Source of the DNA: Candidatus Moraniibacteriota bacterium
Lineage (GTDB): Bacteria > Patescibacteriota > Minisyncoccia > Moranbacterales > UBA1568
Reading direction: 5' to 3'
Assembly (NCBI GenBank): GCA_016699875.1
Contig: CP064989.1
Coordinates: forward strand, 328,788 to 392,787
DNA: 64,000 bases
Positions 1-43,200 of the stretch are shown piece by piece; the first letter of the stretch is position 1; the number at the start of each line of letters is the position of its first letter. Position numbers and translations under genes: made by a program. The notes beneath the pieces are model-generated. The model searched no databases. It worked only from the letters and a program-made list of their open reading frames with translations, and was not told the origin of the DNA.

Positions 1-65
1 GAATCGCACATGATCGAAGTGTTCGCCGAGCCGTTACCAGAGAGAGCTTCTACTGGTTCTTCCAT

Positions 66-1466
66 GTGTATTTCTCACATTACGTAAAATATGCCACAGC
101 TCCTTTTCAGAAGGAGATGTTTAGCCTACTTGAAAGCGATATCCATCAGACGCTTGTCTTCGTTGCTTTCCGAGGTTCAGGGAAATCGACGATCGTCACC
201 ATGGCCTATGTCCTCTGGGCCATTCTTGGTCGACAGGAAAAGAAATACTCGGTGATTACTGGTCAGACTCAATGGCAAGCCCGTCAGCACCTTCAGAACA
301 TTAAGCAGGAACTGGAACGGAATGATGTTCTACGAGGCGATCTTGGTCCGTTTCGAGAAGAGCGAGATGATTGGGGTTCGCTTTCTCTCGTTCTCTCGAA
401 CTATGGAGCGAAGATCACGGCTGCTTCGACAGAGCAAAGTATCCGAGGTATGCGTCACGGAGCCTATCGTCCGGATTTAATTGTCTGTGATGATGTAGAA
501 GATCTTTCCTCAGTGAAAACCTTGGAAAGTCGAGAAAAGACGTATCGGTGGTTTACAGGCGACGTGGTGCCATCTGGTGATCGAGAAACGAGAGTCATCG
601 TCGTTGGGAATCTTCTGCATGAGGATTCGCTTATTATGCGTCTTAGAAAAAATATTGAACAAGGCAATCTAGCCGGGCTTTTCAGAGAGTATCCGTTGCT
701 TGATACCGAAGATCGTTCTCTGTGGCCGGGGAAGTTTTCTGATGAAGCATCGATCCAAACCGAAAAGAAAAAAGTTGGAAGTTACAATGCATGGATGCGG
801 GAGTACATGCTACAGATTTTGCCGGAAGATGATCAGCTCGTGTTATCCGAATGGATTCACTCCTACGAAACATTTCCGAGCCAAGAAGAGCTCCCATTTT
901 GTTTCACGGTTGCTGCTGTTGATCCAGCAATCTCTAAAGAACAAAGTGCCGACTCTACCGCTATCATCACCGCCAAAGTATATGGGTACGCCGAAAAGCG
1001 CCGTATCTATATCTTGCCGTACCCGACCAACCAGCGTCTCAACTTTTCCGAACAGCTAGAAACAATCAAGAGACTAGCAGAAGAGCATCAAAGAAAGATT
1101 ACTCTTCTCATTGAAAATAATGGCTATCAAAGAGCGCTGGTGGAGATGCTCGAAAAGGAACGCTATCCGGTGAAAGGCGTTCAGAATATTGGGCAAGACA
1201 AACGGGCCCGCATTTCACTTATTACGCCGCACCTCAGAAGTGGGATGGTGCTCTTCCCTAAGAATGGTGCCGATGCTCTCATTCAACAACTTGTTGGATT
1301 TGGTGTGGAAAAGCACGATGACTTAGCGGATGCGCTCGCAACTTTGGTGACGTACTGCGTGGAGAATAACAGGCGGTCAGCAAGAGAGAGTCTGGAACTG
1401 TTTGTTAAGATGAATCCTCATCTGCAAAAGTATGATCCGGGAAGTTTATGGAATAAGCGGTTCTAA
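66..1466 (+). CDS. Phage terminase large subunit (ATPase + RNaseH-like nuclease), possibly prophage/satellite remnant
   Basis: Walker A-like 'VAFRGSGKST' near N-terminus, 'VCDDVEDL' Walker B-like, C-terminal 'AAVDPAISKEQSADSTAIIT' nuclease-fold motif typical of terminase large subunits; true start may lie upstream of window start region. Confidence 0.65.
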   Translation: MYFSHYVKYATAPFQKEMFSLLESDIHQTLVFVAFRGSGKSTIVTMAYVLWAILGRQEKKYSVITGQTQWQARQHLQNIKQELERNDVLRGDLGPFREERDDWGSLSLVLSNYGAKITAASTEQSIRGMRHGAYRPDLIVCDDVEDLSSVKTLESREKTYRWFTGDVVPSGDRETRVIVVGNLLHEDSLIMRLRKNIEQGNLAGLFREYPLLDTEDRSLWPGKFSDEASIQTEKKKVGSYNAWMREYMLQILPEDDQLVLSEWIHSYETFPSQEELPFCFTVAAVDPAISKEQSADSTAIITAKVYGYAEKRRIYILPYPTNQRLNFSEQLETIKRLAEEHQRKITLLIENNGYQRALVEMLEKERYPVKGVQNIGQDKRARISLITPHLRSGMVLFPKNGADALIQQLVGFGVEKHDDLADALATLVTYCVENNRRSARESLELFVKMNPHLQKYDPGSLWNKRF

Positions 1467-1467
1467 A

Positions 1468-2391
1468 CTATTCTTCTGACTTTGCAAGCTCATTTCTATT
1501 GCTATGTGTTTCTGATAAAAACACAGCCAGAGTTGATGCTGCCCCCACTGCTAAACGTGCATGACGCGCCCCTAAACCCTTTGTTCCTGCTACCTTCCCG
1601 TGACCAGTTCCATAATGGTTTCGCAACTCCGCGATACCCTGGGTAATAGTAGCTAAGTTACTAAGCAATCTCTTTATTGTTTCAGCTGCCTTTGCTTTTT
1701 CAGGGATATCTTGAGGAGTAAGTTCCAGTTCCTTGCTAGTAAGTTTTACTAACTCCGGTATGTCAGTATTTTTACCGAACTGAATACCTCGTTCTTCAAG
1801 GACTGTCTTGCAACATGTCTCCACTAATTCTTTAGCGGTTCCAATCGCAAGAGATACATCATTTGTAACCGCAGCTTCCATGCGAGTAATTTGCTGGGCG
1901 ATATACATTGGATCAAGACCTGTCAGTGTTGCACGAGCGGATTGTATACCCGGAGTAATCCCTGTGCCTATAATGGCTCGACCAGTATAGACTGGCTTAC
2001 CTGACATACGAGTACGTTCAACTAATTCAAAGCCATCATTTTTCAAAAATTGATTGAACATTTGATGAAGTTTCTCTGACTCCGTAACGTCAGATCGTAC
2101 AACCGGATGTATCGTCTCGCAGAGAAAACGTAAAAATACCTCATCATCCCCATTTAATAGATTGAGGCGTTCATCAGAAAAAACCCAGTCATCATCCCAA
2201 TCATAGTTCATAACACGATGGCGCCAAATATCTCCAGCTGCATCAGCATGTCTTGGATCGTAAGATGGCAAGGTCTCAAGATCAAAAATTCTCGATAAAA
2301 ACTCCGACTCCTCAAGACGGCCGGCCCATTTCACATTTTCAGCTCTTATTGCGTCGATAATATCCCGACGCGTGATTTGAGATATTTTCAT
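1468..2391 (-). CDS. Abi_C / HEPN-domain abortive-infection-like protein (AbiJ-like architecture)
   Basis: C-terminal 'ELRNHYGTGHG' = R-x6-H HEPN/Abi_C signature; N-terminal helical domain; start codon 2-3 nt after stop of upstream helicase (translational coupling). Confidence 0.6.
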   Translation of the reverse strand: MKISQITRRDIIDAIRAENVKWAGRLEESEFLSRIFDLETLPSYDPRHADAAGDIWRHRVMNYDWDDDWVFSDERLNLLNGDDEVFLRFLCETIHPVVRSDVTESEKLHQMFNQFLKNDGFELVERTRMSGKPVYTGRAIIGTGITPGIQSARATLTGLDPMYIAQQITRMEAAVTNDVSLAIGTAKELVETCCKTVLEERGIQFGKNTDIPELVKLTSKELELTPQDIPEKAKAAETIKRLLSNLATITQGIAELRNHYGTGHGKVAGTKGLGARHARLAVGAASTLAVFLSETHSNRNELAKSEE

Positions 2392-2393
2392 TA

Positions 2394-4115
2394 TTAATTA
2401 TTTAGGTTTTTAAAAAAGTTTGCGTCAACAATTACGTTACTTATTCTACTCGAGTCTATCCGGTCAATAAAAACAGATTGGTTCATACCAAACGTCGTTG
2501 CAAAACTTTTATTTGAAATTAAATAACACTGCTTTCGTGTTCTAGTTAACCCAACAATAAACTGACATATCTCTTTATCAGTTGGTTTTTTCTGTATCTT
2601 AGGAAATTCTGTATTGTTTAAACCAACCAGAAAAACAAAAGATGCAGACAGTCCCTTGCAACCATTAAAGGACGTTATCTTTATTGGACTTTGCTTTTTA
2701 TCTTTGTCTTCAGCCTCTGGATCTTTTTTTAGAACCTTCTTTAATTCTTCTATTGTAATAGCAAGCTTATCTGTAACAACCTCTTCTTCATCTTCAGAGA
2801 GAGATTCATCTTTCTTAACCTTTTTCAGTATCTCTAAAACAGCAAGATGTTCATCTTTAAAGTCGGCAGGTATGAGATCTACTAAAGAAACTTGGTTTTG
2901 TTCCGATTCTACAAGCATTTGCTTTAGAATCTTTTTCTTCATTTCTATCTCCGAAAGAACTCTCCAACCGAGATTTGATTGGTTGTTTTTTAACAGAACT
3001 AAGTATCCATCTAATAAGTTGAGCGTATCGTTGGTAGTCTCTTTAAAATCTATATCTTTGAATTTCTTTGATAAGTATCCGTACACCTGGTTTAAATACT
3101 GAGTCTGACCAGCAATAAGGACGCAAGGGTAGTTACCTTTTTGTGCCTTTACCCAATCCTCCGGAGTAATTTTGTTTATCTCACTCTCAATATATTTTCC
3201 GATGTAATTATAATTATCTGTTTTTCTCTGTAATGAACATCTCGCATGAATAATTTTCGGATACTGAACACTCTCGGCTTCCTTATCAGGCAGGTAGCAA
3301 ACATATTCCTTGTTGATCCTGCCGACGAGCCTACCTACTGCTTGTGCTCTGCCTATTATGTCGTGAACTGCGCTAATAATAACCTCTGTACATCGGCTAC
3401 AAAACGGCAACGAGAATCTTATAAAATTCTTATCCGAAGCCTTGTTTCTAATAAATCTTGGGGAGGCATCTTTTAAGTCCTCGTATACTGCCTGATCATC
3501 ATCTCCCACTATGAGTGTTGGGCTTAGCTTGGAAAGCTCTTCAAGAAAAGAAACTTCTAAAAGATTAAAATCCTGATACTCATCTACCACAATCTGACCA
3601 TATGTAGGGATCACGGAGCTATCCTTCTTGAAAGATTGAAGTACTCGGTATACCGCATCATCGTGCCCAACAGCGTTGTAGTAAGTAGCTCTTGTCAGAA
3701 AAAACTTTAATTCTTCTCCTTTATTAAGATTTTGAAATACCTTTCTAAAGTTTTTATACTTATCTCCCGTTAAGTATTTGTTATCTGACTTTATTACTAG
3801 AGGTAGCTTTGGAAAGTAATAAAAAGATGAGGTAAGCCCATCAATTTTTAAAGTATGTAGAAGCTTTTTGCAATAACCATGAAAAGTGTGGGCTTCCGCT
3901 AATCCAGATAGATCCTTCTTTAGCTCATCAGCTAAGTTATTTATAAAAGTTAGAGCTAGAGATTTTACTTTCTTTTGCTGTAATAAAGATTTAAAAGTAA
4001 AACTTTTTCCGGTACCAGCCCCAGCGATAACAAGCTTAAATCTGTCATCCGACTCGACAAGCTCTTTGGTTAGTCTATCCCTTTCATTCTTTTGAAACTC
4101 TTTAATATCTGACAT
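2394..4115 (-). CDS. UvrD/Rep/PcrA-like superfamily 1 DNA helicase
   Basis: Walker A 'AGAGTGKS', motif Ia 'TFHGYC', motif II 'VVDEYQD', motif III 'GDDDQAVY', motif VI 'VGLTRTRK'; very AT-rich coding sequence; lysine/glutamate-rich insertion near C-terminal third. Confidence 0.75.
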   Translation of the reverse strand: MSDIKEFQKNERDRLTKELVESDDRFKLVIAGAGTGKSFTFKSLLQQKKVKSLALTFINNLADELKKDLSGLAEAHTFHGYCKKLLHTLKIDGLTSSFYYFPKLPLVIKSDNKYLTGDKYKNFRKVFQNLNKGEELKFFLTRATYYNAVGHDDAVYRVLQSFKKDSSVIPTYGQIVVDEYQDFNLLEVSFLEELSKLSPTLIVGDDDQAVYEDLKDASPRFIRNKASDKNFIRFSLPFCSRCTEVIISAVHDIIGRAQAVGRLVGRINKEYVCYLPDKEAESVQYPKIIHARCSLQRKTDNYNYIGKYIESEINKITPEDWVKAQKGNYPCVLIAGQTQYLNQVYGYLSKKFKDIDFKETTNDTLNLLDGYLVLLKNNQSNLGWRVLSEIEMKKKILKQMLVESEQNQVSLVDLIPADFKDEHLAVLEILKKVKKDESLSEDEEEVVTDKLAITIEELKKVLKKDPEAEDKDKKQSPIKITSFNGCKGLSASFVFLVGLNNTEFPKIQKKPTDKEICQFIVGLTRTRKQCYLISNKSFATTFGMNQSVFIDRIDSSRISNVIVDANFFKNLNN

Positions 4116-4221
4116 AGCCCAGAATCCTCTAAAAACTAAACTTTAGGCAATTATAGCAAAAAGTCATTTTAGCCCCTGAAGGCCCCTAGACTTGTTTAGG
4201 GGTACGCGTCATTCATGGGGT

Positions 4222-5547
4222 ATGGATACCATGCAAATTCAAGGGAATACTATCAGACAACACATCCCTACGAATGTAAAGTACTGCCTGTACGCTAGAA
4301 AAAGCAGCGAATCGGAAGAGCGCCAAGTGCTCTCCATTGATTCTCAAATCAAGGAAATGCTACTCCTTGCTGACCGGGAAGGGCTCGAGATCGTTGCCAT
4401 GAAACGAGAATCTCACTCCGCCAAAGAAACGGGAGGTCGTCCCATCTTTAATGAAATCGTCGAAGAGCTTCGAGAAGGAAAATTCAACGGCATCCTGACA
4501 TGGGCACCGGATCGCATTTCTCGTAACGCTGGAGATTTAGGAAAAATCGTGGATCTCATGGATGCCGGAAAGCTAGAGGAAATCAGAACGTATAGCCAGA
4601 GGTTTACTAATAATCCTAACGAGAAGTTTCTTCTCATGATCCTTGGTTCGCAAGCAAAGCTTGAGAATGACAATCGAGGCATTAATGTAAAACGAGGGCT
4701 GCGTACAAGAGTTGAGATGGGTCTCTGGCCAGGCGTAGCCCCTATCGGCTATCTCAACCAGAAACACATCGAAAAGAAATGTCAGATCATCATTGATCCA
4801 GAGCGCGCACCCGTGGTCAAAAAGATATTCGAGAAGATGGCCCATGAGAAGTGGTCAGGCCGCAAGATATATCACTGGCTTAGATTCGAACTCAACTTTA
4901 AGAGTTTAAGCAATCACTATATTGCTCTTGGTAATATCTTCCGGATTCTTCAGAATCCTATTTACTACGGATCCTTCGAATACCCGAAGGGTTCTGGCAA
5001 CTGGTATCAAGGAAAACACGAACCAATCATCGACAAAGAGCTCTTTGACAAAACTCAAGAGCAATTGAAAAGGGACAAGATTGTTCGACAGAGCCGGGAG
5101 TTTGCTTTTACCAAACTCATGGTGTGCGGATTATGCGGATCAGGGATTTCTGCGGAAGAGAAGTATAAGCAGCTTAAAGATGGAACAACAGCCAAGTATA
5201 TCTATTACGGCTGCGGAAGATCCAAGGATCGACACTGCAAGAACCCATACCTGCGCGAAGAAGAATTAACTGAACAATTGATTAAAATAATGGATCAAGT
5301 CGATCTTAATCGAACGGGGGTACAGCACAAGTTTGAAGAGGAGCTAAAACGTTACAACAAGTTCAATCGAGGGGTGCTTGGCATCAGAAACCAAGCGCAA
5401 GAGCACCAAGATCTTGATCTGAAAACATATGCTAAGTATGTCCTTCGAGAAGGAACGAGCGAAGAGAAACGAGATCTCATGGGATGCTTCAAATCTAAGG
5501 TAAAAGTACTAAGAAAAATTATCACTATTGAACCAGAAAACCTATGA
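4222..5547 (+). CDS. Large serine recombinase (integrase/resolvase family)
   Basis: N-terminal resolvase catalytic region 'YARKSSESEERQVLSIDSQ', recombinase domain, C-terminal zinc-ribbon 'CGLCGS...YYGCGRSKDRHC'; ORF track starts at 4192 but ATG at 4222 (MDTMQIQ) gives canonical spacing before catalytic Ser. Confidence 0.8.
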   Translation: MDTMQIQGNTIRQHIPTNVKYCLYARKSSESEERQVLSIDSQIKEMLLLADREGLEIVAMKRESHSAKETGGRPIFNEIVEELREGKFNGILTWAPDRISRNAGDLGKIVDLMDAGKLEEIRTYSQRFTNNPNEKFLLMILGSQAKLENDNRGINVKRGLRTRVEMGLWPGVAPIGYLNQKHIEKKCQIIIDPERAPVVKKIFEKMAHEKWSGRKIYHWLRFELNFKSLSNHYIALGNIFRILQNPIYYGSFEYPKGSGNWYQGKHEPIIDKELFDKTQEQLKRDKIVRQSREFAFTKLMVCGLCGSGISAEEKYKQLKDGTTAKYIYYGCGRSKDRHCKNPYLREEELTEQLIKIMDQVDLNRTGVQHKFEEELKRYNKFNRGVLGIRNQAQEHQDLDLKTYAKYVLREGTSEEKRDLMGCFKSKVKVLRKIITIEPENL

Positions 5548-5656
5548 AACCACCCTAAAATTCAGAGTTGATTTTTGTCCTTCAAAAAGCTATACTTGTC
5601 GTACAATCTGTCCTAACCCTTAGAGGACCTCTGACTCTAAGGTATGGCGCAATAAA

Positions 5657-5800
5657 CCCTAGCTAATAGAGACGGCCTCATGGTCGGCACTTATTAGCTA
5701 GGTCGGTTCCCGAAAGGGTTCCGGGCATTCCGAAAGGTTTGTCGCCGTTCCGTGGGGCTTTTTGTATACCTCAAGAACGGAATTTAAATCCTAGCTAATA
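5657..5800. repeat. Hairpin/inverted-repeat cluster: 'ccctagctaata'(5657-5668) / 'tattagctagg'(5692-5702) inverted pair plus third direct copy 'cctagctaata' (5790-5800); additional 'cccgaaaggg' palindromes
   Basis: Read directly in sequence immediately downstream of the serine recombinase stop; candidate att/recombination or structured RNA region. Confidence 0.4.
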
Positions 5801-5818
5801 AATATAATCAATATAATT

Positions 5819-6361
5819 ATGAGTGAGCAAATTCAGTCTTTGGAACAGATTCAGAATGTTCCAACTAAGCGCCCTTGGTATAAGCGATGGTGGGTGATAG
5901 TTGTTGCAGTATTCATTATCTTCGGTGCCATAGGTGGTAGCGGAGGAGACAAGTCAAAAACTTCATCTACTAGTGAAAATTCAGTTGAAAAACAAGGCTC
6001 CGGCAACACAGTAGAAGAAACTACTGCAAAAACTGAAGAGAAGAAGCCAAGCGTACCAGCCGAATATAAATCTGCACTCAGCCAAGCTACTTCGTATGCT
6101 AATACCATGCATATGTCGAAAAAAGGAGTGTACGATCAGCTAGTTTCAGAATACGGCGGAAAGTTCTCTGCTGAAGCAGCACAGTATGGTATCGATAATG
6201 TAGAGACGGATTGGAATGCCAATGCCCTCGCCAAAGCAAAAACCTATCAAGATTCAATGCACCTCTCACCAGCAGCAATACGTGACCAACTAGTCTCGGA
6301 ACACGGTGAAAAATTCACTCAGACTGAAGCAGATTATGCCATTACAAATCTTAACAAATAG
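5819..6361 (+). CDS. Membrane-anchored protein with two Ltp-family (host cell surface-exposed lipoprotein / superinfection exclusion) repeats
   Basis: N-terminal TM helix 'WWVIVVAVFIIFGAIGG'; tandem ~50-aa repeats 'YDQLVSEYGGKFSAEAAQYGIDN' and 'RDQLVSEHGEKFTQTEADYAITNL' characteristic of Ltp domain. Confidence 0.55.
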   Translation: MSEQIQSLEQIQNVPTKRPWYKRWWVIVVAVFIIFGAIGGSGGDKSKTSSTSENSVEKQGSGNTVEETTAKTEEKKPSVPAEYKSALSQATSYANTMHMSKKGVYDQLVSEYGGKFSAEAAQYGIDNVETDWNANALAKAKTYQDSMHLSPAAIRDQLVSEHGEKFTQTEADYAITNLNK

Positions 6362-6393
6362 TGTGAACCCAAGAAGAGTATAGGGCTATAATA

Positions 6394-6420
6394 AAACTGC
6401 CAATCTGGCAGTTTTATTAT
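6394..6420 (+). terminator. Rho-independent terminator after Ltp-like gene
   Basis: hairpin 'aaactgcca-atc-tggcagttt' followed by T-rich 'tattat'. Confidence 0.55.
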
Positions 6421-6509
6421 ATCTATTGGCTCATTCCCACTGATCGTACAAAATAGGGTGTATCTAGTCTTAGAAGCGTCCTTGGTATAAACGATGGTGG
6501 GTAATAATC

Positions 6510-6737
6510 ATGGGGATAGGCATTCTTGTCATTATTATGGGAAGCTCTGAGGAATCAAATAGGTCGGTAACCCAAGAAACGAACGAAAACCCTGTAAAGG
6601 CGGTTGAATATGCAATAGAAGCCAAGAAGACATCATGGGATGATATCACCGTCTGGGCATATAAAAATAGTGAAAAAGGTTCGGCTATTGAAATGGCTGA
6701 AACGATGGGAATGAAAGAATACTCTACCTGTCATTAA
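6510..6737 (+). CDS. Small hypothetical membrane protein; N-terminal TM segment is a diverged duplicate of the Ltp-like gene 5' end
   Basis: ~27-bp near-identical DNA segment 'ccttggtataaRcgatggtgggtRata' at 5873 and 6480; no in-frame upstream ATG beyond 6510, may be pseudogene. Confidence 0.25.
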   Translation: MGIGILVIIMGSSEESNRSVTQETNENPVKAVEYAIEAKKTSWDDITVWAYKNSEKGSAIEMAETMGMKEYSTCH

Positions 6738-7732
6738 TAATGCAAACATTGGTACTCCAATGATAACCAAAGCCAACGCCTTCACCATTTCTTCAATCAG
6801 AAATGAAAATGAAGACCCCTGACCATCATTACAACAGTCAGGGGTTAATCCTTACCCTTACAAAGTACTCAATATTTCATTGCGCTCAACCCAAGACCAT
6901 AGGCAACACTTGTGAAGGCATCGACTGGAAGTATTTTCCCCTCCCCAAACCGGTCCAGGAAGATTCTCCTGACTCTTGGAATAAAGGAGGAACCTCCTGT
7001 TAAAAGAACGGTGTCCACATCCTGTAAAGAGATCCCAGCCCGAGACACTGTATCGTCCACGCAGACTTCAATCTTCTGAAACTTGTCTTCTGCCAGAGTT
7101 TCAAATGCATCTCTTGTGATTTCCTCCCGGATCACGATGCCTTTCTCGGAAAATTCGATGATGGAGGATTCCCTATCAGAGAGTTCTCGCTTCACCTTCT
7201 CGATAGCTCGGAACAGCATATAGCCAAGATTTTCGATAATCAGAGTGTGAAGATTTTTCACTGCTTTCTGATCCTCGTCGGACACCCCTCGAAGCGAGTG
7301 GATTATTTGAAGCGTCTTCTTGTCGCGAAGCTGTGGAATCATGTGCCACTCACAGAGCGTCATCGGAAGCCAAATTGGAAGCTCAAGAATTTGATCAGGC
7401 AACGATCCGCGAATCTTTGTGTCTCTGCCAAAGTGTTTTGCAAGTTCGTGCCACATGATAGAAGCATCAAAAGCATCGCCCGCGATATACACTCCGCCAG
7501 TTGCGAGAATATCTTTTTCACGATCTTCTCTCGAATCACGTTTTCCACCACGGAGCCGCATAACTACGAAGTCAGACGTTCCACCGCCGAAGTCACCCAT
7601 GAGCACCAGTTTCTCCTCCCCCTTTCGAAGGTCTGACTCATAGGAAAGCGTCGCCGCGATCGGTTCGTACACGAAGTGCACATTTGCAAACCCAGAACGA
7701 AGAGCTGCTGCCCGCAATCTTTCTTCCGCTAA

Positions 7733-8580
7733 GAACCTGTTTACAATCTTCTGGTACACTGAGGACATAATCCTCAAACCAAAAGAACCATGTATCCAAG
7801 CGACATAACCCGAGAACAATTCGAACACATCAGACCATTTCTCGAATCAACCAGGAAGAGAACCAAACCAAAGACACTTGATTCCTATGACGTATTCAAC
7901 GCTCTGCTCTACATTCTGGTCACGGGTTGCCAATGGAGGGCACTTCCCAAGGATTATCCAAAATGGCAGAGTGTCTATCGACACTTCCTTGTCTGGAAGG
8001 AACGAAAAACAAACAGACAGAGAGTATGCTTGAGCAAGTCTTAAAAAAATTGGTCGAACAAGAACGTATGAAAAATGGCAAACAATGCAAAACCAGTTTC
8101 TGCATCGTTGATGCTCAAAGTGTCAAGAATACAGATACGGCTCGAGAAAAAGGTTATGATGCAGGAAAAAAAGTTTCCGGTATCAAGCGACATATTCTCG
8201 TTGACACCAACGGATTGCCGCATGCGTTCACGGTAACCACTGCTAACGTCACTGATCGAAATGGAGCTATCCAAGCCGTCAAGGCAAACAAAAAAACACC
8301 TTTCACGGGTGGAGAAACTCTTGACTGATGGTAGTTATACCGGAGAAAACTTCGCCAAAGCGATCAAAGCATGTATCGGTGCGGAAGTGGGAGTAGCTAA
8401 ACGAAACGAATTGCATACGTTTGCCGTTCTTCCTCAGCGCTGGGTGGTCGAGAGAAGCTTCTCCTGGCTGGAGAAATGCCGAAGGCTCTGGAAGAATTGC
8501 GAACGGACACTGGATTCGAGCTTACAGATGATGGTTTTAAGTTTTGCTCGATTGTTGTTGAAAAGATTGTAAACAGGTTC
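7733..8580 (+). mobile_element. IS5-family insertion sequence (IS1031/ISL2-like), copy 1, with 3-bp TSD 'taa'
   Basis: Terminal inverted repeats 'gaacctgtttacaatctt' / 'aagattgtaaacaggttc'; flanking direct 'taa' at 7730-7732 and 8581-8583; internal DDE transposase reading frames; second copy at 58231..59080. Confidence 0.75.
7790..8572 (+). pseudogene. IS5-family DDE transposase, split into three frames by homopolymer indels (copy 1)
   Basis: ORFs 7790..8044, 7927..8328, 8261..8572 together equal the orfA/orfB of copy 2; A-run lengths differ from copy 2 at three sites (A5 vs A6 at the KERK site, A7 vs A8 at the LKK slippery site, A7 vs A6 at the KANKK site). Confidence 0.65.
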
Positions 8581-9096
8581 TAAGAGATCAAGCTCTCTGT
8601 CTTCTGAAAAGAGTACGGGACGACCCATGACAACCGTGTCCACGACATGTCCCACATGGAGTTCGCCGCGATGCTTGATAGTTTTCAGAATGAGCGCGAT
8701 TAAATCTTCGATTTCATAGCGCCTGCCAAAAACATAGGTTTCTTTGAAGCTCTTACTTGGCAGAAATGCCTTGATGGATTGCATGAGACGACCGTAGGTT
8801 CCGCCGTAATCAACGTATTGGTCAATAGCCTCCTGACCAATATTGATACCACCTTCCTCGTCAAAGAAAAGTACCGATTTGAGGGTGTGTGGCGATGGAC
8901 TCGATGGGTCAATATCAGCAATTGCGACGTTATTTCCCTTCGCTATTGCCAAAACAGAATTTGTGGTTCCAAAATCAAGACCAAATGCTATAGACATGAG
9001 AATATCCTCGTTTCTAATAAGTTTGAAAGGTGCTTCCCGTGTATATCACAAACTCTTCTAAATATCAATGGCTCGAATTTCTGAATAAAAAGAGTC

Positions 9097-9735
9097 TTAC
9101 AAGTTCATGCATCTTCGAATGTTATCAAGAGTCACAATTTTACCATTCAAATTCGTTCCTGGATTCTTGAAAATTTTATCGTGAATGCTAGAGCACCATA
9201 AATCAGTAGGGTTGCTTTCTGTGTTGATAACACAACCGCCCACTGCTAATGCCCATTTGGCATTAAACTTTTCGATAGACTCAAAATACTTGTTCGAAAG
9301 ATAGATATCTTCCGTTTCCTTCCTATTATTCACGCTCAAGCATCTTGCGCGAGAAATATTATACCCACAACGAACCCAAACAAACACATTCGGAAATATA
9401 ATTTCCTCAATTTTCTTCTTAAGGAGATCGAAGTATGCCTCTCTTATATCAGCCAATCCCAATTCATACAGAGCGAATACGTGAGCGCTCACGGAAACAA
9501 AGCTTCTGTCCAAAAGATTGACGCCGGTTTGAAGAAAACTTTTTCGATATGTATCCACTGAGAGATACCGGTCTTGCAAGTTCAGATACTCACTTTTATA
9601 AAAGCTCCTCTGTGGGACACCGTCAATAAAAAGAGAGTGTTCATCAACAGACACGTAGCCGTAGTTATCTGAGAGAAACCGAATGAGCGTTGTCTTTCCC
9701 GTGTACACATTTCCATCGAATGAGATGACTCTCAT
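9097..9735 (-). CDS. P-loop NTPase, nucleoside/nucleotide kinase-like
   Basis: Walker A 'FDGNVYTGKTTL' at N-terminus, ~210 aa, dNK/thymidylate-kinase-like size; 4-bp overlap with upstream radical SAM gene. Confidence 0.4.
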   Translation of the reverse strand: MRVISFDGNVYTGKTTLIRFLSDNYGYVSVDEHSLFIDGVPQRSFYKSEYLNLQDRYLSVDTYRKSFLQTGVNLLDRSFVSVSAHVFALYELGLADIREAYFDLLKKKIEEIIFPNVFVWVRCGYNISRARCLSVNNRKETEDIYLSNKYFESIEKFNAKWALAVGGCVINTESNPTDLWCSSIHDKIFKNPGTNLNGKIVTLDNIRRCMNL

Positions 9736-10604
9736 AAGGCCAATTTACACTTTTTACACAAATCCGTGTAAACATCCGATCCGTTGTTATAAATAGCCTG
9801 GCGGTATTTTTTATACATCTCGGAGTTCCATATATCTTCCATAGAACTCTCCGTCACATTTCCCAGCTTGTGCTTCCATTTCCAGTCCATGCAGCAGAGA
9901 ATCACGTCTCCTCTAAAATTTATGTGCATTCGTTCCAATGGTCTTCTCTGCTCGCAGCCATAGACAAACTCCTTGTTTATGTCGTTCGAAAACCTCTCAA
10001 CATTACCACTTCTATCAAAGAATCCCCAGAATTCGAATTTGATAAATGTCTCCCTGCAGAAATCTCTCGCCAACAAAATGTCTTCTTGGGTTATTTCTGG
10101 ATAATCAACCATGACAAGCGACACCTGTCCTATGTTCGCGCGCAATTCTTTGTTTTGGGAAAGAGTATCCAAATTTTTCTTTGTTTTTTTCCAATTTAAT
10201 CCAGGCATCACTTTCCGATAAGATTCTTCTGTAAAACCGAAAACACTAAGCCGCAATTCTTTTATGGTAAAGGCTTTCAGTTTATTCTGCATTTCCTCGT
10301 TAAGCTGTGAGACATTAGTGGACACTTCTATCTCCACGCCCGGACATTTCTGGTTAATATAAGATAGCCTTTCGAATATGAGTGGATCGAGTAAAGGCTC
10401 ATTATTGAAATACGGGATGATCCGAATGCCCCAGGGATTCTTTATTTGATCAATAATCTTTTTGAAAAGATCCATAGACATAATGCCGCCCGGCAATTTT
10501 CCTGCGACATCCCTATGCGGACAAATAATACATCCGGCATTACAAGACGATATGGTTTGAATCTCTATGGCTGATGGGAACGGATTGTATGACACCTTTT
10601 TCAT
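9732..10604 (-). CDS. Radical SAM enzyme with C-terminal SPASM/twitch-like Cys cluster
   Basis: 'CNAGCIICP' CxxxCxxC motif near N-terminus; C-terminal 'CCMDW...LGNV...EDIWNS...CKKCK' auxiliary cluster region. Confidence 0.7.
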   Translation of the reverse strand: MKKVSYNPFPSAIEIQTISSCNAGCIICPHRDVAGKLPGGIMSMDLFKKIIDQIKNPWGIRIIPYFNNEPLLDPLIFERLSYINQKCPGVEIEVSTNVSQLNEEMQNKLKAFTIKELRLSVFGFTEESYRKVMPGLNWKKTKKNLDTLSQNKELRANIGQVSLVMVDYPEITQEDILLARDFCRETFIKFEFWGFFDRSGNVERFSNDINKEFVYGCEQRRPLERMHINFRGDVILCCMDWKWKHKLGNVTESSMEDIWNSEMYKKYRQAIYNNGSDVYTDLCKKCKLAL

Positions 10605-10610
10605 AGAGGC

Positions 10611-12167
10611 TCATCTAGTTCTCTCGAGACCCGAATAAATCTGGGAAAGAATATCATCCCTGCCTAATCGTGAAACGCCGTTTATAAAGGTAAAATATTC
10701 AATCTTCAGTTTGAAAAATTTTTCAGAAAATTTTTCAGTGAAATCTTTTTGGAAGCAATCATTCATTGAGTCACCTTTCCCTACTTTAGCAATCAAGGAG
10801 GAGAGAAAAACATAAATACTATCCATTAGCTCTTTCTGAGAAAGACAGAATCTTTGATGCTCAAGGCTAAGTTCCTCGCCCAGATGGATATTTTCTTTCT
10901 GAATTAGACCATATAGAATACCCATCGTTGTACAATAATATTCAAACTCGTAAGCAATTCCTCCAAAATTCCCACTAAAAATACTCTTAGCTTTCTCAAA
11001 GAGCCTCCCGACATCGTCATTCAAAAATCTGTAGCCATATGTTATATCTCGGTAGCGCGCTTCAGTACTTATAAGACCACCCTCAAGGAGTTTCTTATGC
11101 ATAAAAGATCCGGGTATCACACGAACTGGTTCAAGTATCACGCCTAATCTGAATAATTTCCCTATTTTGTACAAATATTCTAGATTCATTTGGATGTCAT
11201 CAAGCGTCGAAAATGGCTCAAAGGTTATATATCCAATATGAACATTAACATTCAATCGATTCAGCTTCTCCCGAATCTCAATAAATGAATCTTTTTTAAT
11301 TGGTTTCCTAAATAAAATCTGCGATTTTTCCGAAGCGTTCTCCACACCAAGAAAAACCCTAACAAGACCAGCATCTGCCAGTGCATTTAACACTTCATCA
11401 TGAATAAATGGGTTACATCGTAAATATACATACATTCTTATATCAAGCTTTCGTCTTTTTATTTCCGAACAAAATTTCAAAATGCGATCATTATCTCTTC
11501 CAGACGCCCAAAAAACACTATCATTGAAGATGAAAAGCTTTTTCCCAATTTCCTTGTTTAGGAGCTCCATTTCATCTACAACTTTAACCGGGTCTCGAAA
11601 ATCCATTACTGCTACAGTTTTCTCTTTACGGGTTGCAAGCGGTATATGACAGAATGAACAATTATAGATACAACCTCGAGAAGCTTCTATATTTATATAA
11701 CTTCCTAGCTCTTCTTTCTCCACATCCCTTGCTGGAAATGGCAATTGATTAAGCAGAATATATGCTTCACTCGGCACATATTCCACGATTGATTGATTTT
11801 CCCGCCAAATCCCCCCTTTACATTCTTTTATTGATACGTTTCGTTGAATCATTTCAAGCAACTTCCCAGCAACACTCTCAACCTGATCAATGATGATTCC
11901 ATCTAACCATTCATTTTCCTCCAGCATGGATTTTGCATTCAAAGATGCAAACGGTCCACAGAAGAAGATTTTAGACACTTCGCCACCACCTCTCATGATC
12001 TTAAATAATGGAAACATGATAGCAAAGTCTTTAAAATTTGGCTTTGCAATAATAACGAGTCTTTCATTGGAATTCTCACTCAAAATGCTTCCAAAAGAAT
12101 GGAAATTTTCCTTTTCCAAAAGGCATATATCAACAATGAATCCCTTACCCCTTAAAATAGGCAGCAA
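10611..12167 (-). CDS. B12-binding domain radical SAM (class B) enzyme
   Basis: N-terminal cobalamin-binding-like domain followed by 'ASRGCIYNCSFCH' radical SAM motif, ~520 aa. Confidence 0.7.
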   Translation of the reverse strand: MLPILRGKGFIVDICLLEKENFHSFGSILSENSNERLVIIAKPNFKDFAIMFPLFKIMRGGGEVSKIFFCGPFASLNAKSMLEENEWLDGIIIDQVESVAGKLLEMIQRNVSIKECKGGIWRENQSIVEYVPSEAYILLNQLPFPARDVEKEELGSYINIEASRGCIYNCSFCHIPLATRKEKTVAVMDFRDPVKVVDEMELLNKEIGKKLFIFNDSVFWASGRDNDRILKFCSEIKRRKLDIRMYVYLRCNPFIHDEVLNALADAGLVRVFLGVENASEKSQILFRKPIKKDSFIEIREKLNRLNVNVHIGYITFEPFSTLDDIQMNLEYLYKIGKLFRLGVILEPVRVIPGSFMHKKLLEGGLISTEARYRDITYGYRFLNDDVGRLFEKAKSIFSGNFGGIAYEFEYYCTTMGILYGLIQKENIHLGEELSLEHQRFCLSQKELMDSIYVFLSSLIAKVGKGDSMNDCFQKDFTEKFSEKFFKLKIEYFTFINGVSRLGRDDILSQIYSGLERTR

Positions 12168-37247: not shown

Positions 37248-40200
37248 CTACTGGCCAAAAATTGACTTGAGACTCGAGAACACAATATCAAGCGCATTCT
37301 CGGTCGCTTTGGGCGCAATGGAAACAATATCAATCGACTCGCCGACATTTCCCGCCTTGTCCTTCGAAAGAACACGGAGATGATATACCTTGGACGGTGT
37401 CAATTTCGATATCACTACGGTATGGTTTGACACGAGCGAAGCGTCTTCTTGTGTCTTTTGAGGATAGACCGATCCCGTACCCTCACCGTATTCCACCTGA
37501 GAAGTAGCCGATTCGTCAGTCGTCCAGGTAACTACCAATTGAGCTTCTGCCTCACCTTGGCTTCCGTCCGACGATTTCACGATAAGTCCCTCAACATTCG
37601 CATCGATAATTTGCGGAGCGCGCGTATCAGTTGCCGTAGTAAACTGCAAAGCATCCGACTTGGCTTCATTGCCAAAATTGTCACGCCCTCTCACCACCAG
37701 CGAATACGACGTCTGCGGCAAGAGATCTCGAAGCAGTATGCGATGCTCCCCGACAACCATCTTCGCATCCACTTCATCCCGCGCGTCCCCCGCACCTCCT
37801 TCGGGAGCATACGTAACAATGGAAGACGTCTCCGTGTTCGTCTTCCAGGAAATCAGCAACACGGTCTGCGCCGTTCCCTTCACCTGTTGAATACGAACCT
37901 CTTCGATTTTCGGTCTCGGCAACGTTTCAAAAGAGAGCGTGTTTCCTTCATACTCCTCTCCTTCGCTATCGACAGTGTTTATCTTATAGTAATATTTTGT
38001 CCCATCGAGAAGATCTTCGATACTGGTTGTATACGTTGTCTCCGATGTTGATGTGGATATTTCTTTCACCAAGCCGAACGCCTCCGTAAGTCCGTAATAG
38101 ATTTTCACCTTGCTCGCCCCTTTCGCCGTGAATTCCAAAATGGCATTCGAAAGCCCCGCACTCTTCAAATTCGGATCGACAACAGTCGGAGCCGGATCGG
38201 TTTTGAATGCCTTTTCTCCCGAAAGACCGGTATTGCCATCCTCATCCGTCCAACGCGCGCGATAATGATAGGTTGTCCCCGGAGAAAGATTCGAGAGTTT
38301 AATTTCATGATCCGTCACCTGTTCGGAGTTGCTTGGTTCTTCGGAGTAATAGTCTCCGGAGCCCTTTCCATATTGGACCTTGCTATCAGACGCTCGATCG
38401 GTAGACCATCCGATTGTTGCGCTTTTGGTCGTAATAAGCGAAACCGACGGACCGGAGGCGAGTCCGGCCGCCTCGGTATACTTCCCGGTCGGATACGATG
38501 AAACAACCTCACTGAAGGCGCCGCAATTGTTAACGCTGTCGCAAGCACGAATCTTGTAATAATGCGTCGCCTGCGTCAGTCCCGTATCCACAAAGGCGAT
38601 ACCGCTCGTCGAAGCAACCTTTGCATACGTGCCACCCTCACTCAGCGAGTGATATATCTGATAGGAGTCGACACCGGAACCGATATCCGCGGGTGCTTCC
38701 CATGAGATTGCAAGCTTCCACGACTCGGTATTCTTTACCGAAACGTCGGCAATATCGGTATTGAGCGGAATCCCCGGCGCACTCGTATCAGCAACAAACT
38801 CGACCGTCTCATAGGCGCCATAATTAATCACCCCTCCCAAATCTTCCGGATTCTTCGCCACGACATAAAACGTATTCGCGCCTTTTTGCGTAGCAAACGC
38901 CGACGCCGCAACCGATTCCACTCCGGGAGACGTAAACGTACACGCATCTTCCGACGGTATGGCATTCACCGTATAACAATACGTGAGATCACTCGCTTCT
39001 CCCGAAAAGCTGAACGGCGGATCCCATGTAAAAGCGAAGGAGTTCGCCGTATTTGTCTCTGGAATTGCCTGGACGTTCTGCGGCGCAGTCGGTCCTGACC
39101 CCGCATAGTAGAATGATGTCCGCACATTTCCCGAACTCACATTGCCAGCGACGTCAATCGTGCGCAAATAGAAGAAATTTTCTCCGGTTTGGTAGGCGGC
39201 ATCCGCGATATCAACCTGAAGCGCTGTCGTGGTAGCTGACCAGCTGTCACTCGCCACAGTCGCCCCGATTTGGTACTGATACCCGGCAATCATCGAGTTG
39301 GTTGCCGGATTACCATTCCCATCCACTCCCGCGCTCCACAAAAATGAGAAATCATTATCGGGAGAATACACAGCCGGTGCCGCCGTCACACCAAGAGGAT
39401 TGGTTGGCGCTGTCGAATCAAGCCAGTAGGAGAACGAAACCGGAAACACAACACTCGAATTTTGCGCCACATCTTTCGCTTTTACGATGAGATAATATTT
39501 CTGCCCGCTTACCAAGGCGTTTCCATCCGTGTCCGTTGTCGCCACATAACTATTCCCTGACTGAAAATCCCCCTGCGTCGTCGGTTCAGCACTCGCCGAC
39601 GTGCCGAAATAAACATAGTATCCTGAAACACCCGATCCGCCCGTATCCGTTGCCGCCGACCACTCAAAAGATGGCGCCGAATATGAGTACCACGTAGCTG
39701 TCGTCAAGTCCGTCGACCCGCCATCGGAATCTTTGGCGGTCAGTGTCGGCGTCCCGGACCACGTCGGCGCCGAGAGATCCGCAGTAGCAGTCAAGACAAC
39801 AGAATTTAATCGAACCAACTCATTTCCATTGCCAAGAAACACCGCCTGCCACAGCAACCCGCCCGATCCGGCGGGAAATGTCGATATGTTCGCCGATACC
39901 GTCGAAGCGTCATTCGACTGCGCGTATCCGGACGATGTCGCCCACGCGGAACCGGTCCAGTACTGCCACGTTGATCCGCCATCATCCGAGAGGCGATAGG
40001 TGATGGCACCGGGCGATTCCTCATCCGCAACGAATGAGTCCCACTTCTTCACTCCGGACGTATGCACTGCCGAAGCGAGCGTTACCGTCTCATATCCGCT
40101 CGAATACGGAGTTGACTGGAATGATGTCCTGGCTATGGAACTAATACGAAGCTCATCGAGAGATCCTTGGAAAAACCCTTCCGGCTTTCCATATTCCCGC

Positions 40201-43200
40201 CCGGCATATGTCGTTCCGATCAAAAGATCGCTCGATGAATCCGAAATCGACATGGAAACAGACCGCGAATTATTGAGCGTCCCGTCAATATACAGACTCA
40301 TAGTGGAGCCGTTATACGTCGCCGCCACATGATGCCAACTCGTATTAAAAGAGCTGGTCGCCGACTGAAGAAAAGCATTGTTGCCGAATGACCACACGGC
40401 CGCATCAGCATTCGCAGTGTTTCCGGTACCGGCGTAAAACTTTCCTTTGTACGCACTGAATGCTCCGACTTCCTCAATCGTCGATCCCCAACTTCCACTG
40501 ATATTATCACCGCCGACCTGCGTCCATGATGAACCGACATATCGCCACACCTCTCCATCGCCGGCAGTTGTCCCCAGCCCGGCATAGAGCGCGCCATTGT
40601 AAACGGCAAGCGTCCGAACCCGCTCATATGTTCCACTTGCCCAACTTCCCCCGACATCGTCACCGCCAATCATAGTCCACGATGAGCCGTCATACTTCCA
40701 CACTTCCGCATCATCGGTCGATGTCCCGAGTCCGACATAGAGAAACCCGGCGTAGACAATCATGCTGTCTACCTGTTCATACGTACTATTGGCCCAGCTC
40801 GAGTTGACACCGTCTCCACCAACACGGCTCCACGACGGCGTGCCATCACAGTTCGTACACTCCCACACTTCGGCATCGCCGGCACTCGAGCCGAGACCGG
40901 CATATATCTTTCCGGCATATATGCCAAGTGTCGTCACCCGCTCAAAGTTCGTCGTCCAACCGGAATAGAGACTATCCCCACCAACTTTGGTCCACGTCGA
41001 TCCGTTCCATCGCCACACTTCGGCGTCATTAGCGCTATTCCCCAAACCGGCATAGAGAAACCCTCCATACGAAGCAAGCGAGTTCACCTCTTCGAAATTC
41101 GTCGTCCAGCCGGAGTTCAAACTATCACCGCCGATCTGCTCCCAAGTCGATCCATCCCAATGCCACACTTCGGCGTCATTGGCACTTGAACCCAAACCGG
41201 CATACAACTCACCTCCATGCCCGATCAAGCTCGTCACAGTTTCATACGTATTGGAAATCCAACTATTATTCACGCCTTGACCGCCAATGAGTTCCCAGGA
41301 TGAACCGTCAAATCGCCACACCATGGCATTGCCGATAGTGGCAACGCCTGTCCCCGCATACAGATAGTCGCCGGTCACATTCAAGACCTCGACACTCCGA
41401 AGACCGCGAAAACCCCAACTGAAGTTTATGTAATCTCCGCCGATAAGCTCCCATGATGAACCATTCCATGCCCATTCCTGTGCCGAAACCGTTGAACTTG
41501 AAGTGCTGACACCCGCAAAGAGCGTCGACCCGGATACAGCAAGCGTACTCACAATCGTGTGCGTACTCGAAAAACTCCCATTGACTCCATCGCCGCCGAT
41601 TTTGGTCCATGCTGATCCGTCAAAACTCCACACCTCATTGTCTCCGGCTGTTGATCCGAGACCGGCATAGAGCGTCGTTCCATCATTCGCGAGAGAATAC
41701 ACCATTTCATAGTTCGAACTGTCCCAGCTTGAACTTACGGTGTCACCGCCAATTTTGGTCCATGTTGAGCCGTTCCATTTCCAGACTTCCGCATCGCCAG
41801 CCGTCGATCCGAGACCGGCATAGAGATTCCCGCCGAAGTACGTCATCGAATAGACATACTCGTATGTCGCATCCCAGCTCGAATTCAAGCTGTCGCCGCC
41901 GATTTTGGTCCACGTTGATCCGTTCCATTTCCAGACTTCGGAATCTCCGGCCGTTAAACCCAAGCCGGCATACACATTCGTACCGTCATTTACCAAACTG
42001 TAGACGCCTTCGTAATTCGTCGTCCAGCCGGAGTTTAAGCTGTCGCCGCCGATTTTGGTCCACGTTGATCCGTTCCATTTCCAGACTTCCGCATCATTTG
42101 CTCCCGTCCCAAGTCCGGCATAGAGCTCTCCGCCGACAAACGTGAGCGCATTGACCGCTTCAAACGTATTGATTTGCCAGCTCGAATTGAGCGCATCACC
42201 ACCGATTTTTGTCCACGTTGATCCGTTCCATTTCCAGACTTCCGCATCGCCAGTTCCGCTTCCGAGTCCGACATAGAGATTCGTCCCGTCATTCGCCATG
42301 ACATACACCGCTTCAAACGTATTGATTGTCCAACAGTTATTGAGACCGTCACCACCAATCTGTGTCCATCTCGTTCCGTTCCATTTCCAGACTTCCGCAT
42401 CGCCCGTTCCATTTCCCGTCCCGACATACAAATCTCCCCCAAGAACATTTGAGGATTCAATAGTCGGATTCCCGTTCAAGTCCCAACTCCCGTTTATATC
42501 ATTTCCTGCCTGCTGCGTCCATCCGGATGCCGAATCATTTGCCAGCTCATAGGTGAGCTTGCCCGTTTCATTGTCGTAGTACAATTGATAGTCGCCCTTA
42601 TCAACAATTCCCTGGCGCTGAGCATGGCTTCCTGCCGAAAATGCCGAAGAGAATTTCGTCCACGCTTCAATCGTATTCGCCTGCGACAGAGAATTTTCAG
42701 CCGAATCCGGCACCGATGCAAACGCCGTTGTTCCATTGAAAGAGAGTGCATTGTTGAGATTTCCGGCTACGAAACTTCCACCCGATACCGTCGCGTGATT
42801 TGCGTTCGACGAACTGTCATTCGCCGTCGATCCACTCGATTCATCGAAATGGTAAAGTGCCACCGTATTGTCATCATCGGTGTAATTCTTAACCGAGAGA
42901 CGAGATTCCGTATTCGCGCTATCAATCGTAACTCCGCTTGAAGAGACGTACTCGCTTGATGTTGAAAAATCCCATGTCTCGCTGATTTCTCCGTCAGCGA
43001 GAATACTGTGGATCCGACCGGAAAGAAACAAAAATGCGCCTGCTGCCACGCAAGCGGACAAGACAGACAGACCGATATATCTCGGCTTCAGACTCCATAA
43101 AAACCGCGCAGTCCACACAAAGACTCGCGCCACAGAAACCGCGCCCGAAGCAAAAAGGCGATAGAAATTATTGTATTTTCGCATAGCATCCAAACGACGG

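Follow-up and report, generated by a model that had tools for sequence, protein, structure and literature searches.

A 64,000-nucleotide stretch of the genome of a Candidatus Moraniibacteriota bacterium (contig CP064989.1, positions 328,788 to 392,787 of the forward strand; hereafter the window, numbered from its first letter) carries on its minus strand a gene for a UvrD-like helicase and, directly downstream, a gene for an abortive-infection-type protein with an AbiJ_NTD3 and an Abi_C (HEPN) domain, referred to as AbiJ below. The two were judged, with a probability of about 0.62, to be functionally autonomous cargo genes that lie head-to-tail and are co-transcribed, and not a new two-gene defence system. 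Such a system had been proposed in a first-pass annotation, in which the helicase and the HEPN gene were taken for an anti-phage module. Both open reading frames (ORFs) were found at exactly the positions given there (1468-2391 and 2394-4115); the module itself was not borne out, the pair being absent from 86 helicase loci and from about 93 AbiJ-NTD3 loci and the architecture of AbiJ being self-contained (PMC3710099; PMC13590631). Failure of the pair to co-occur elsewhere had been named in advance as an outcome that would speak against a module, and in the loci sampled no co-occurrence was seen.

For the helicase side, 80 loci from one-genome-per-species contigs were retrieved with the helicase alignment (31-53% identity), and all ORFs were searched by phmmer with the window AbiJ and with hidden Markov models (HMMs) of both of its domains. 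AbiJ_NTD3 or Abi_C was detected in none of the 80, even at E ≤ 1, and at least 1 kb of sequence downstream of the helicase was available in 69 of them. Six further loci, those of the closest metagenomic helicase relatives (48-51% identity), also contained no AbiJ (0/86 in total). For the AbiJ side, 80 metagenome loci were retrieved with the AbiJ alignment (47-78% identity), and their ORFs were searched with the helicase and its family HMM, which gave no match (0/80; at least 400 nt upstream of AbiJ available in 63 loci and at least 1.7 kb in 41). Eight viral contigs with AbiJ-NTD3 contained no UvrD-like helicase, and five loci of AbiJ relatives with 76-78% identity contained no helicase, which brings the AbiJ side to 0 of about 93. 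These 76-78% identical relatives lie 54-239 nt from the nearest called upstream gene and adjoin a serine recombinase with ParB, or SIR2 and Mrr genes; no recurrent neighbour of AbiJ-NTD3 genes was found. Adjacency of helicase and AbiJ was found in this genome only (the window and one identical Logan contig), and no UvrD + HEPN/Abi_C system was found described in the literature searched. Identity to the best relative is 52% for the helicase and 78% for AbiJ, a difference that was counted in favour of separate histories of the two genes and hence of their autonomy.

AbiJ adds a new member to a family that is already known and described. AbiJ_NTD3 (PF18860; 202.1 bits against a cut-off of 32.5, E 5e-60, profile positions 1-167 of 167) and Abi_C (PF14355; 96.4 bits against a cut-off of 24, E 1e-27, profile positions 1-81 of 83) were matched in one polypeptide with no further Pfam match, in agreement with the Abi_C/HEPN identity and the motif RNHYGTGH proposed earlier. 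The motif occupies residues 257-264, of which R257, N258 and H264 are invariant in 55 homologues, and the window protein retains all family-invariant residues. More than 6000 homologues were found, the top 120 at 70-78% identity, with the top matches coming from Lysobacter, Cyanobium, Rhodocyclaceae, Acidobacteriota and many metagenomes; an NCBI entry identical to the window protein (100%) bears the name "abortive infection family protein". Among GenBank phages, three weak or partial matches were obtained, all in unannotated records. The AlphaFold2 (AF2) model of AbiJ was mediocre (predicted local distance difference test, pLDDT, 71; predicted template modelling score, pTM, 0.45) with an N-terminal alpha+beta domain (pLDDT ~84 at residues 1-130) and a flexible linker at residues 139-162. 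A Foldseek search of the model against the PDB gave nothing significant (best E 0.2, a de novo designed helical protein), and the AbiJ profile had no match among PDB sequences. The HEPN assignment is therefore based on Pfam profile and motif, and not on structural similarity.

The architecture AbiJ-NTD3 + AbiJ-type HEPN was described in 2013 by Anantharaman et al., who proposed an N-terminal sensor of a phage component that restrains a suicidal RNase (PMC3710099). In a 2026 study the Abi_C protein SadR was characterized as a single-gene defence and Mg2+-dependent single-stranded RNA (ssRNA) RNase, and NTD3 was found in 510 of 2815 Abi_C proteins (PMC13590631). Lactococcal AbiJ is likewise a single-gene abortive infection protein, escape mutants of which map to a single-stranded DNA (ssDNA)-annealing protein (PMC13064643). 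No experimental test of the AbiJ-NTD3 subclass was reported in the literature searched. By analogy with these proteins, the window AbiJ would be a self-contained, single-polypeptide RNase of the abortive-infection type. Its N-terminal domain would silence the C-terminal HEPN RNase until a phage component is sensed, the freed HEPN domain would then degrade RNA, and the infected cell would be arrested; as in other HEPN enzymes, the active form may be a dimer that unites two R-x6-H motifs.

The helicase belongs to an uncharacterised family of UvrD-like proteins of ~570 aa that is found in defence islands and mobile elements and has no fixed partner. Pfam matches were obtained to UvrD-helicase (56.5 bits), AAA_19 (52.2 bits) and UvrD_C (27.0 bits). 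The SF1 helicase motifs listed in the first-pass annotation are intact, and GAGTGKS, DEYQD, GDDDQ, R241, KG at 487-488 and R525 are invariant in 67 family members. The AF2 model was confident (pLDDT 94.2, pTM 0.90), and its top Foldseek matches were DNA-bound UvrD and PcrA (template modelling score 0.70-0.74, E 1e-24, 16-18% identity); with UvrD-helicase and UvrD_C domains, motifs I-VI and the 1A/1B/2A/2B fold, the protein is a UvrD-like member of helicase superfamily 1A (SF1A). Housekeeping PcrA, UvrD and Rep were rejected as identities on the NCBIfam equivalog models (60.2 bits against a cut-off of 911, 47.4 against 1144 and 44.4 against 951, respectively), and the separation from housekeeping UvrD/PcrA that had been suggested thus held. 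The family is patchily distributed (Patescibacteria, ANME-1, Dadabacteria, KSB1 and others). What had been called an unusual lysine/glutamate-rich insertion proved to be a family-wide feature of the 2B subdomain: the stretch is occupied (~1.0) in all 67 members, and the segment W385-K487 measures 102 aa in the window helicase against a family median of 106. Modelling was less confident in the linker that follows to about residue 477 (pLDDT 68-78 at residues 461-480). The stretch is only more highly charged in the window helicase (charged fraction 0.53 against a family median of 0.38), as would be expected of an AT-rich gene.

In the same protein, four cysteines (C239, C242, C273 and C293; window ~3399-3235, minus strand; one CxxC) are conserved in at least 90% of the 67 members. 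To our knowledge they have no counterpart in UvrD or PcrA, and they may form a metal site.

The neighbourhoods of helicase relatives are highly variable, 121 immediate neighbours being distributed over 134 Pfam families. The commonest of these are restriction-modification families (Eco57I 7, N6_Mtase 6, ResIII 5, GmrSD_N 4, MmeI_Mtase 4); transposase, resolvase and integrase domains also occur, and single family members lie beside an AlwI endonuclease, HsdR or a DUF499 protein. In about 8 of 79 loci (~10%) a co-directional gene starts within 10 nt downstream of the helicase. The closest relatives (48-52% identity) are mostly without such a coupled gene.

Three side observations were made in these loci. 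In six of them (L027, L067, L079, L165, L003 and L043) the gene immediately upstream of the helicase is of the type IIG/MmeI-like, type ISP-like or methyltransferase-specificity fusion kind (the last in L003 and L165), and in L027 a Cas4-like nuclease gene then follows the helicase as well; in these loci the helicase could serve as motor to a restriction enzyme that is split between genes. In the locus of the closest metagenomic relative (51% identity; L162, 5719-8690), neither Pfam nor PADLOC gave a match for two overlapping downstream genes (555 and 435 aa); these are preceded by a DUF2779 protein gene and followed by a gene for a small protein with a weak HEPN match. In a distant locus (L038), the gene directly 3' of the helicase (HNH + DnaJ-type zinc finger, 7737-8939) matches the PADLOC candidate model PDC-M01B (E 4.5e-12), and in the window the N-terminal domain of AbiJ (residues 30-138) matches PDC-M01A (E 5.7e-9); the two matches may arise by chance from shared domains, or they may point to a link between the helicase family and the candidate system.

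The features of the gene pair and its flanks are listed in Table 1.

Table 1. Positions of the gene pair, its expression signals and flanking genes in the window (residue numbers refer to the encoded protein)
Feature	Position	Strand	Size or location	Basis or remark
Helicase gene	2394..4115	-	573 aa	ORF call
Helicase Walker A, GAGTGKS	4025-4002	-		motif
Helicase DEYQD	3584-3570	-		motif
Lys/Glu-rich stretch	2689..2793	-	helicase residues 441-475	helices 441-451 and 455-463 of 2B-like subdomain and start of linker
AbiJ-NTD3 + Abi_C (HEPN) gene	1468..2391	-	307 aa; downstream of helicase gene	ORF call
AbiJ_NTD3 domain	1882..2388	-	residues 2-170	Pfam
Abi_C HEPN domain	1516..1758	-	residues 212-292; RNHYGTGH at 1600-1623	Pfam and motif
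Junction spacer	2392..2393	-	2 nt (TAA-ta-ATG)	read from sequence
Extended -10 element TGcTATAAT, promoter-like	4150..4158	-	76-nt gap between helicase and divergent recombinase	read from sequence
Shine-Dalgarno-like AGAGGA	4125..4130	-	9 nt 5' of helicase ATG	sequence
Large terminase (TerL), T7-type	1..1466	+	called gene 497 aa, start ~28 nt left of window	PHROG 38, 286 bits; NCBIfam termin_lrg_T7
Large serine recombinase (integrase)	4192..5547	+	divergent from helicase	Resolvase + Recombinase + Zn_ribbon_recom; PHROG 95 integrase, 216 bits
Ltp-type lipoprotein	5819..6361	+		Pfam Lipoprotein_Ltp, E 1.6e-46; PHROG 4980 superinfection exclusion, 219 bits

The helicase stop codon (TAA, 2396-2394) and the AbiJ start codon (ATG, 2391-2389) do not overlap, and inspection of the 18 nt ahead of the AbiJ ATG revealed no Shine-Dalgarno sequence. 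A consensus scan for terminator-like sites gave none at the junction. The corresponding promoter scan, which demands a -35 hexamer, did not list the extended -10 element ahead of the helicase, and promoter-like sites were fewer across the region than in shuffled sequence; the element is a candidate promoter for a helicase-AbiJ transcript. Co-transcription, which had been deduced from the spacing of the two genes, is probable in the absence of a junction terminator, and translational coupling from helicase to AbiJ is plausible; the spacing by itself tells little of a functional link. The convergent TerL and AbiJ genes have stop codons 1 nt apart (1466/1468), and tight packing is a trait of the whole region, which is compact like a phage genome. 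Because the packing is regional, the 2-nt spacing is weak evidence for a functional link. Two details of the packing were also recorded: between the convergent TerL and AbiJ genes there is no room for a terminator, and in the identical Logan contig (L161) the gene for a TerS-like protein and TerL overlap (3745-4161).

As for base composition, the helicase gene is AT-rich as claimed earlier (GC 0.352 against 0.479 for the window); AbiJ, with a GC of 0.43, is equally AT-rich at third codon positions. GC3 values (GC at third codon positions) were 0.322 for the helicase and 0.325 for AbiJ, against 0.465 for TerL, 0.473 for the recombinase and 0.488 for the window, and by this measure both genes are foreign to the prophage core. 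A separate origin of the two genes, inferred from the GC gap (0.35 against 0.43), was rejected on the equal GC3 values.

Several points weigh against autonomy of the two genes. The comparison sampled at most the 80 best loci of each scan and falls short of a complete census. Helicase and AbiJ share a low GC3 (0.32) that differs from their neighbours', and they may have arrived jointly as one cassette. AbiJ follows on the helicase strand after 2 nt, with neither a Shine-Dalgarno sequence of its own nor a terminator-like site at the junction, and its expression probably depends on the helicase transcript and possibly also on helicase translation. Where genes tightly coupled downstream of a family helicase could be annotated, they were nuclease-like: Cas4-like PD-(D/E)XK (L027, L055), PLD (L028), HNH + zinc finger (L038) and GmrSD (L079). 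Finally, UvrD-like helicases coupled to toxins are documented, namely in type II Gabija (GajB with the MazF-like GajC) and DarHTG (PMC13069673).

On these grounds (the operon-like layout, the identical GC3, the roughly one in ten family members with a closely spaced downstream gene, nucleases included, and the Gabija and DarHTG precedents), a true two-gene system was considered, in which the helicase would track or sense phage DNA or replication intermediates and activate or license the HEPN RNase, as one case of a helicase family with interchangeable downstream effectors. It was judged unlikely: the two genes co-occur in none of the helicase or AbiJ-NTD3 loci sampled, AbiJ has lost no family-invariant residue and shares 78% identity with copies that stand alone, the closest helicase relatives are mostly uncoupled downstream, compact spacing is general in the region, and the nuclease neighbours could merely reflect residence in defence islands. 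A wider form of the idea is that the ~570-aa family is an unrecognised modular defence helicase with swappable downstream effectors (Cas4-like PD-(D/E)XK, PLD, HNH, GmrSD and, here, AbiJ-NTD3 HEPN) or upstream type IIG/ISP-like methyltransferases, the window then holding a rare helicase-licensed HEPN variant; this was regarded as quite doubtful.

Another reading, in which AbiJ is an unrelated neighbour and the helicase works for the mobile element (for example by helping the excised element to replicate or recombine, or by opposing restriction by the host), is decidedly improbable. The helicase gene does adjoin, divergently, the integrase gene, the protein matches PHROG 1967 "DNA helicase" (104 bits), mobile-element domains (resolvase, integrase, transposase) occur among family neighbours, and a 51% identical relative stands alone beside type IV secretion genes (VirB4/TraC-like, TraG-like) of a conjugative element. 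Against this, no close relative was found in 2.9 million viral contigs (best ~25% identical, a partial UvrD-like match), no plasmid among the 72,556 of PLSDB was matched by tblastn at E ≤ 1e-20, GC3 is unlike that of the prophage core genes, and the genes most often found beside family members belong to restriction-modification or encode nucleases and do not serve replication. T7-type phages, moreover, use a different replicative helicase. A toxin-antitoxin pair, in which the HEPN protein would be the toxin and a repeated RNA (type III, as for AbiF/AbiV) or the helicase the antitoxin, is very improbable: the HEPN Abi proteins AbiV and AbiF are indeed type III toxins (PMC13064643), but positions 1-7000 contain only two tandem repeats, both short and unrelated to the gene (383-398 and 5796-5817), no Rfam family adjoins AbiJ, and stand-alone AbiJ homologues have no conserved neighbour, which fits autoinhibition by their own N-terminal domain. 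The type III form with a repeat RNA was rejected, no tandem repeat or Rfam match being present near 1468-2391.

In the favoured reading, helicase and AbiJ are probably transcribed together from a promoter in the 76-nt gap at 4116-4191. The helicase would be a catalytically intact 3'-5'-type SF1A DNA motor of a family that appears to travel alone in restriction-modification or defence islands and mobile elements, and it would most likely act on foreign or replicating DNA, alone or with host factors, without need for AbiJ.

The cargo position between a terminase and a serine recombinase, as first noticed in the earlier annotation, was confirmed with Pfam, PHROG and NCBIfam. Helicase and AbiJ occupy the accessory ("moron") end of a T7-type prophage, flanked by phage core genes on one side and by the integrase on the other, and differ from these in GC3 (0.32 against 0.47), as is typical of a moron cassette. 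The true start of the serine recombinase is probably the ATG at 4222. The Ltp gene is a second immunity gene of the same element. A search of the contig index with the exact AbiJ protein retrieved the identical 4.8-kb Logan contig, which adds 1131 nt to the left of the window with an N6_N4 DNA methylase gene and a gene for a 138-aa helix-turn-helix protein (TerS-like) upstream of TerL; the exact helicase protein gave no match in this index. The resulting gene order is DNA methylase, TerS-like, TerL, AbiJ and helicase (these two on the minus strand), serine integrase and Ltp. To the right of Ltp, an Hsp70-like gene split by an insertion sequence is followed by ordinary cellular genes.

Further observations on the flanking region were as follows. 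A LOOT RNA (RF03000) was detected at 5610-5743 on the plus strand (59.8 bits against a gathering threshold of 46.4, E 1.4e-9, model positions 1-121 of 121), within the 271-nt gap between the serine recombinase and Ltp genes. The Hsp70-like gene (minus strand) is divided into an N-terminal part at 8434-8997 and a C-terminal part at 6869-7828, and the insertion sequence between them encodes a DDE_Tnp_1 transposase over three overlapping plus-strand ORFs (7790-8572). At 9097-12167 (minus strand) there are three co-directional genes, for a deoxynucleoside-kinase-like protein, a radical SAM/SPASM protein and a second radical SAM protein, which might form a nucleoside- or peptide-modification cluster. 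The largest ORF of the window (1988 aa) lies at 37248-43214 on the minus strand.

If the two genes are autonomous, the locus is an ordinary prophage end with stacked immunity genes, namely an AbiJ-type RNase, an Ltp exclusion protein and a stray helicase, and is of modest note for its host, a Candidatus Moraniibacteriota bacterium. Both protein families could merit attention beyond this locus: the AbiJ-NTD3 subclass is numerous and, with 70-78% identity between members from different phyla, extremely conserved, while the helicase family, widespread and uncharacterised, is repeatedly found beside restriction-modification methyltransferases and nucleases, and could supply a missing component of some restriction-like systems.

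Among described systems, the AbiJ-NTD3 + HEPN proteins (PMC3710099) share the two-domain architecture of the window AbiJ, which matches both Pfam models over their full length, and SadR and the AbiJ-NTD3 proteins (PMC13590631) share the conserved R...H motif and the solitary habit in mobile elements and defence islands. SadR, a distant Abi_C protein, and lactococcal AbiJ, for which a phage protection phenotype has been reported (PMC13064643), differ from the window protein in their N-terminal regions. With the PADLOC model of lactococcal AbiJ (PDLC02347), only residues 164-295 were matched (profile positions 150-276 of 281, 50.5 bits); as this is the C-terminal half only, the window protein belongs to the same family as lactococcal AbiJ without being its orthologue. 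Unlike stand-alone AbiJ-NTD3 genes, the window gene has no upstream intergenic region of its own. The helicase shares the four-subdomain fold and all ATPase/helicase motifs with UvrD, PcrA and Rep but is distant from them in sequence, about 150 residues shorter, patchily distributed and marked by its family-specific cysteines. Gabija GajB is likewise a UvrD-like helicase in a defence context, and its partner in type II Gabija is an RNase-type toxin (PMC13069673), the logic that had been suggested for the window. An assignment to Gabija was nevertheless rejected: the PADLOC GajB models gave at most 69.5 bits in partial matches (best stretch residues 428-555), the PDB sequence matches of the family profile at E ≤ 10 included PcrA (99 bits) and no GajB chain, the flanking ORFs scanned from the window start to 14.9 kb contained no GajA-type Pfam match (ATPase + TOPRIM/OLD), and the downstream partner is AbiJ_NTD3 + Abi_C (HEPN) and not a MazF-like GajC. 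The setting as a whole resembles the defence hotspots of temperate phages and their satellites, where immunity genes (Abi, superinfection exclusion) likewise lie beside the integrase at the prophage end, and Ltp of Streptococcus phage TP-J34 is a case for comparison; in the present locus, by contrast, the host is a Candidatus Moraniibacteriota metagenome-assembled genome and the prophage is of the T7 type with a serine integrase.

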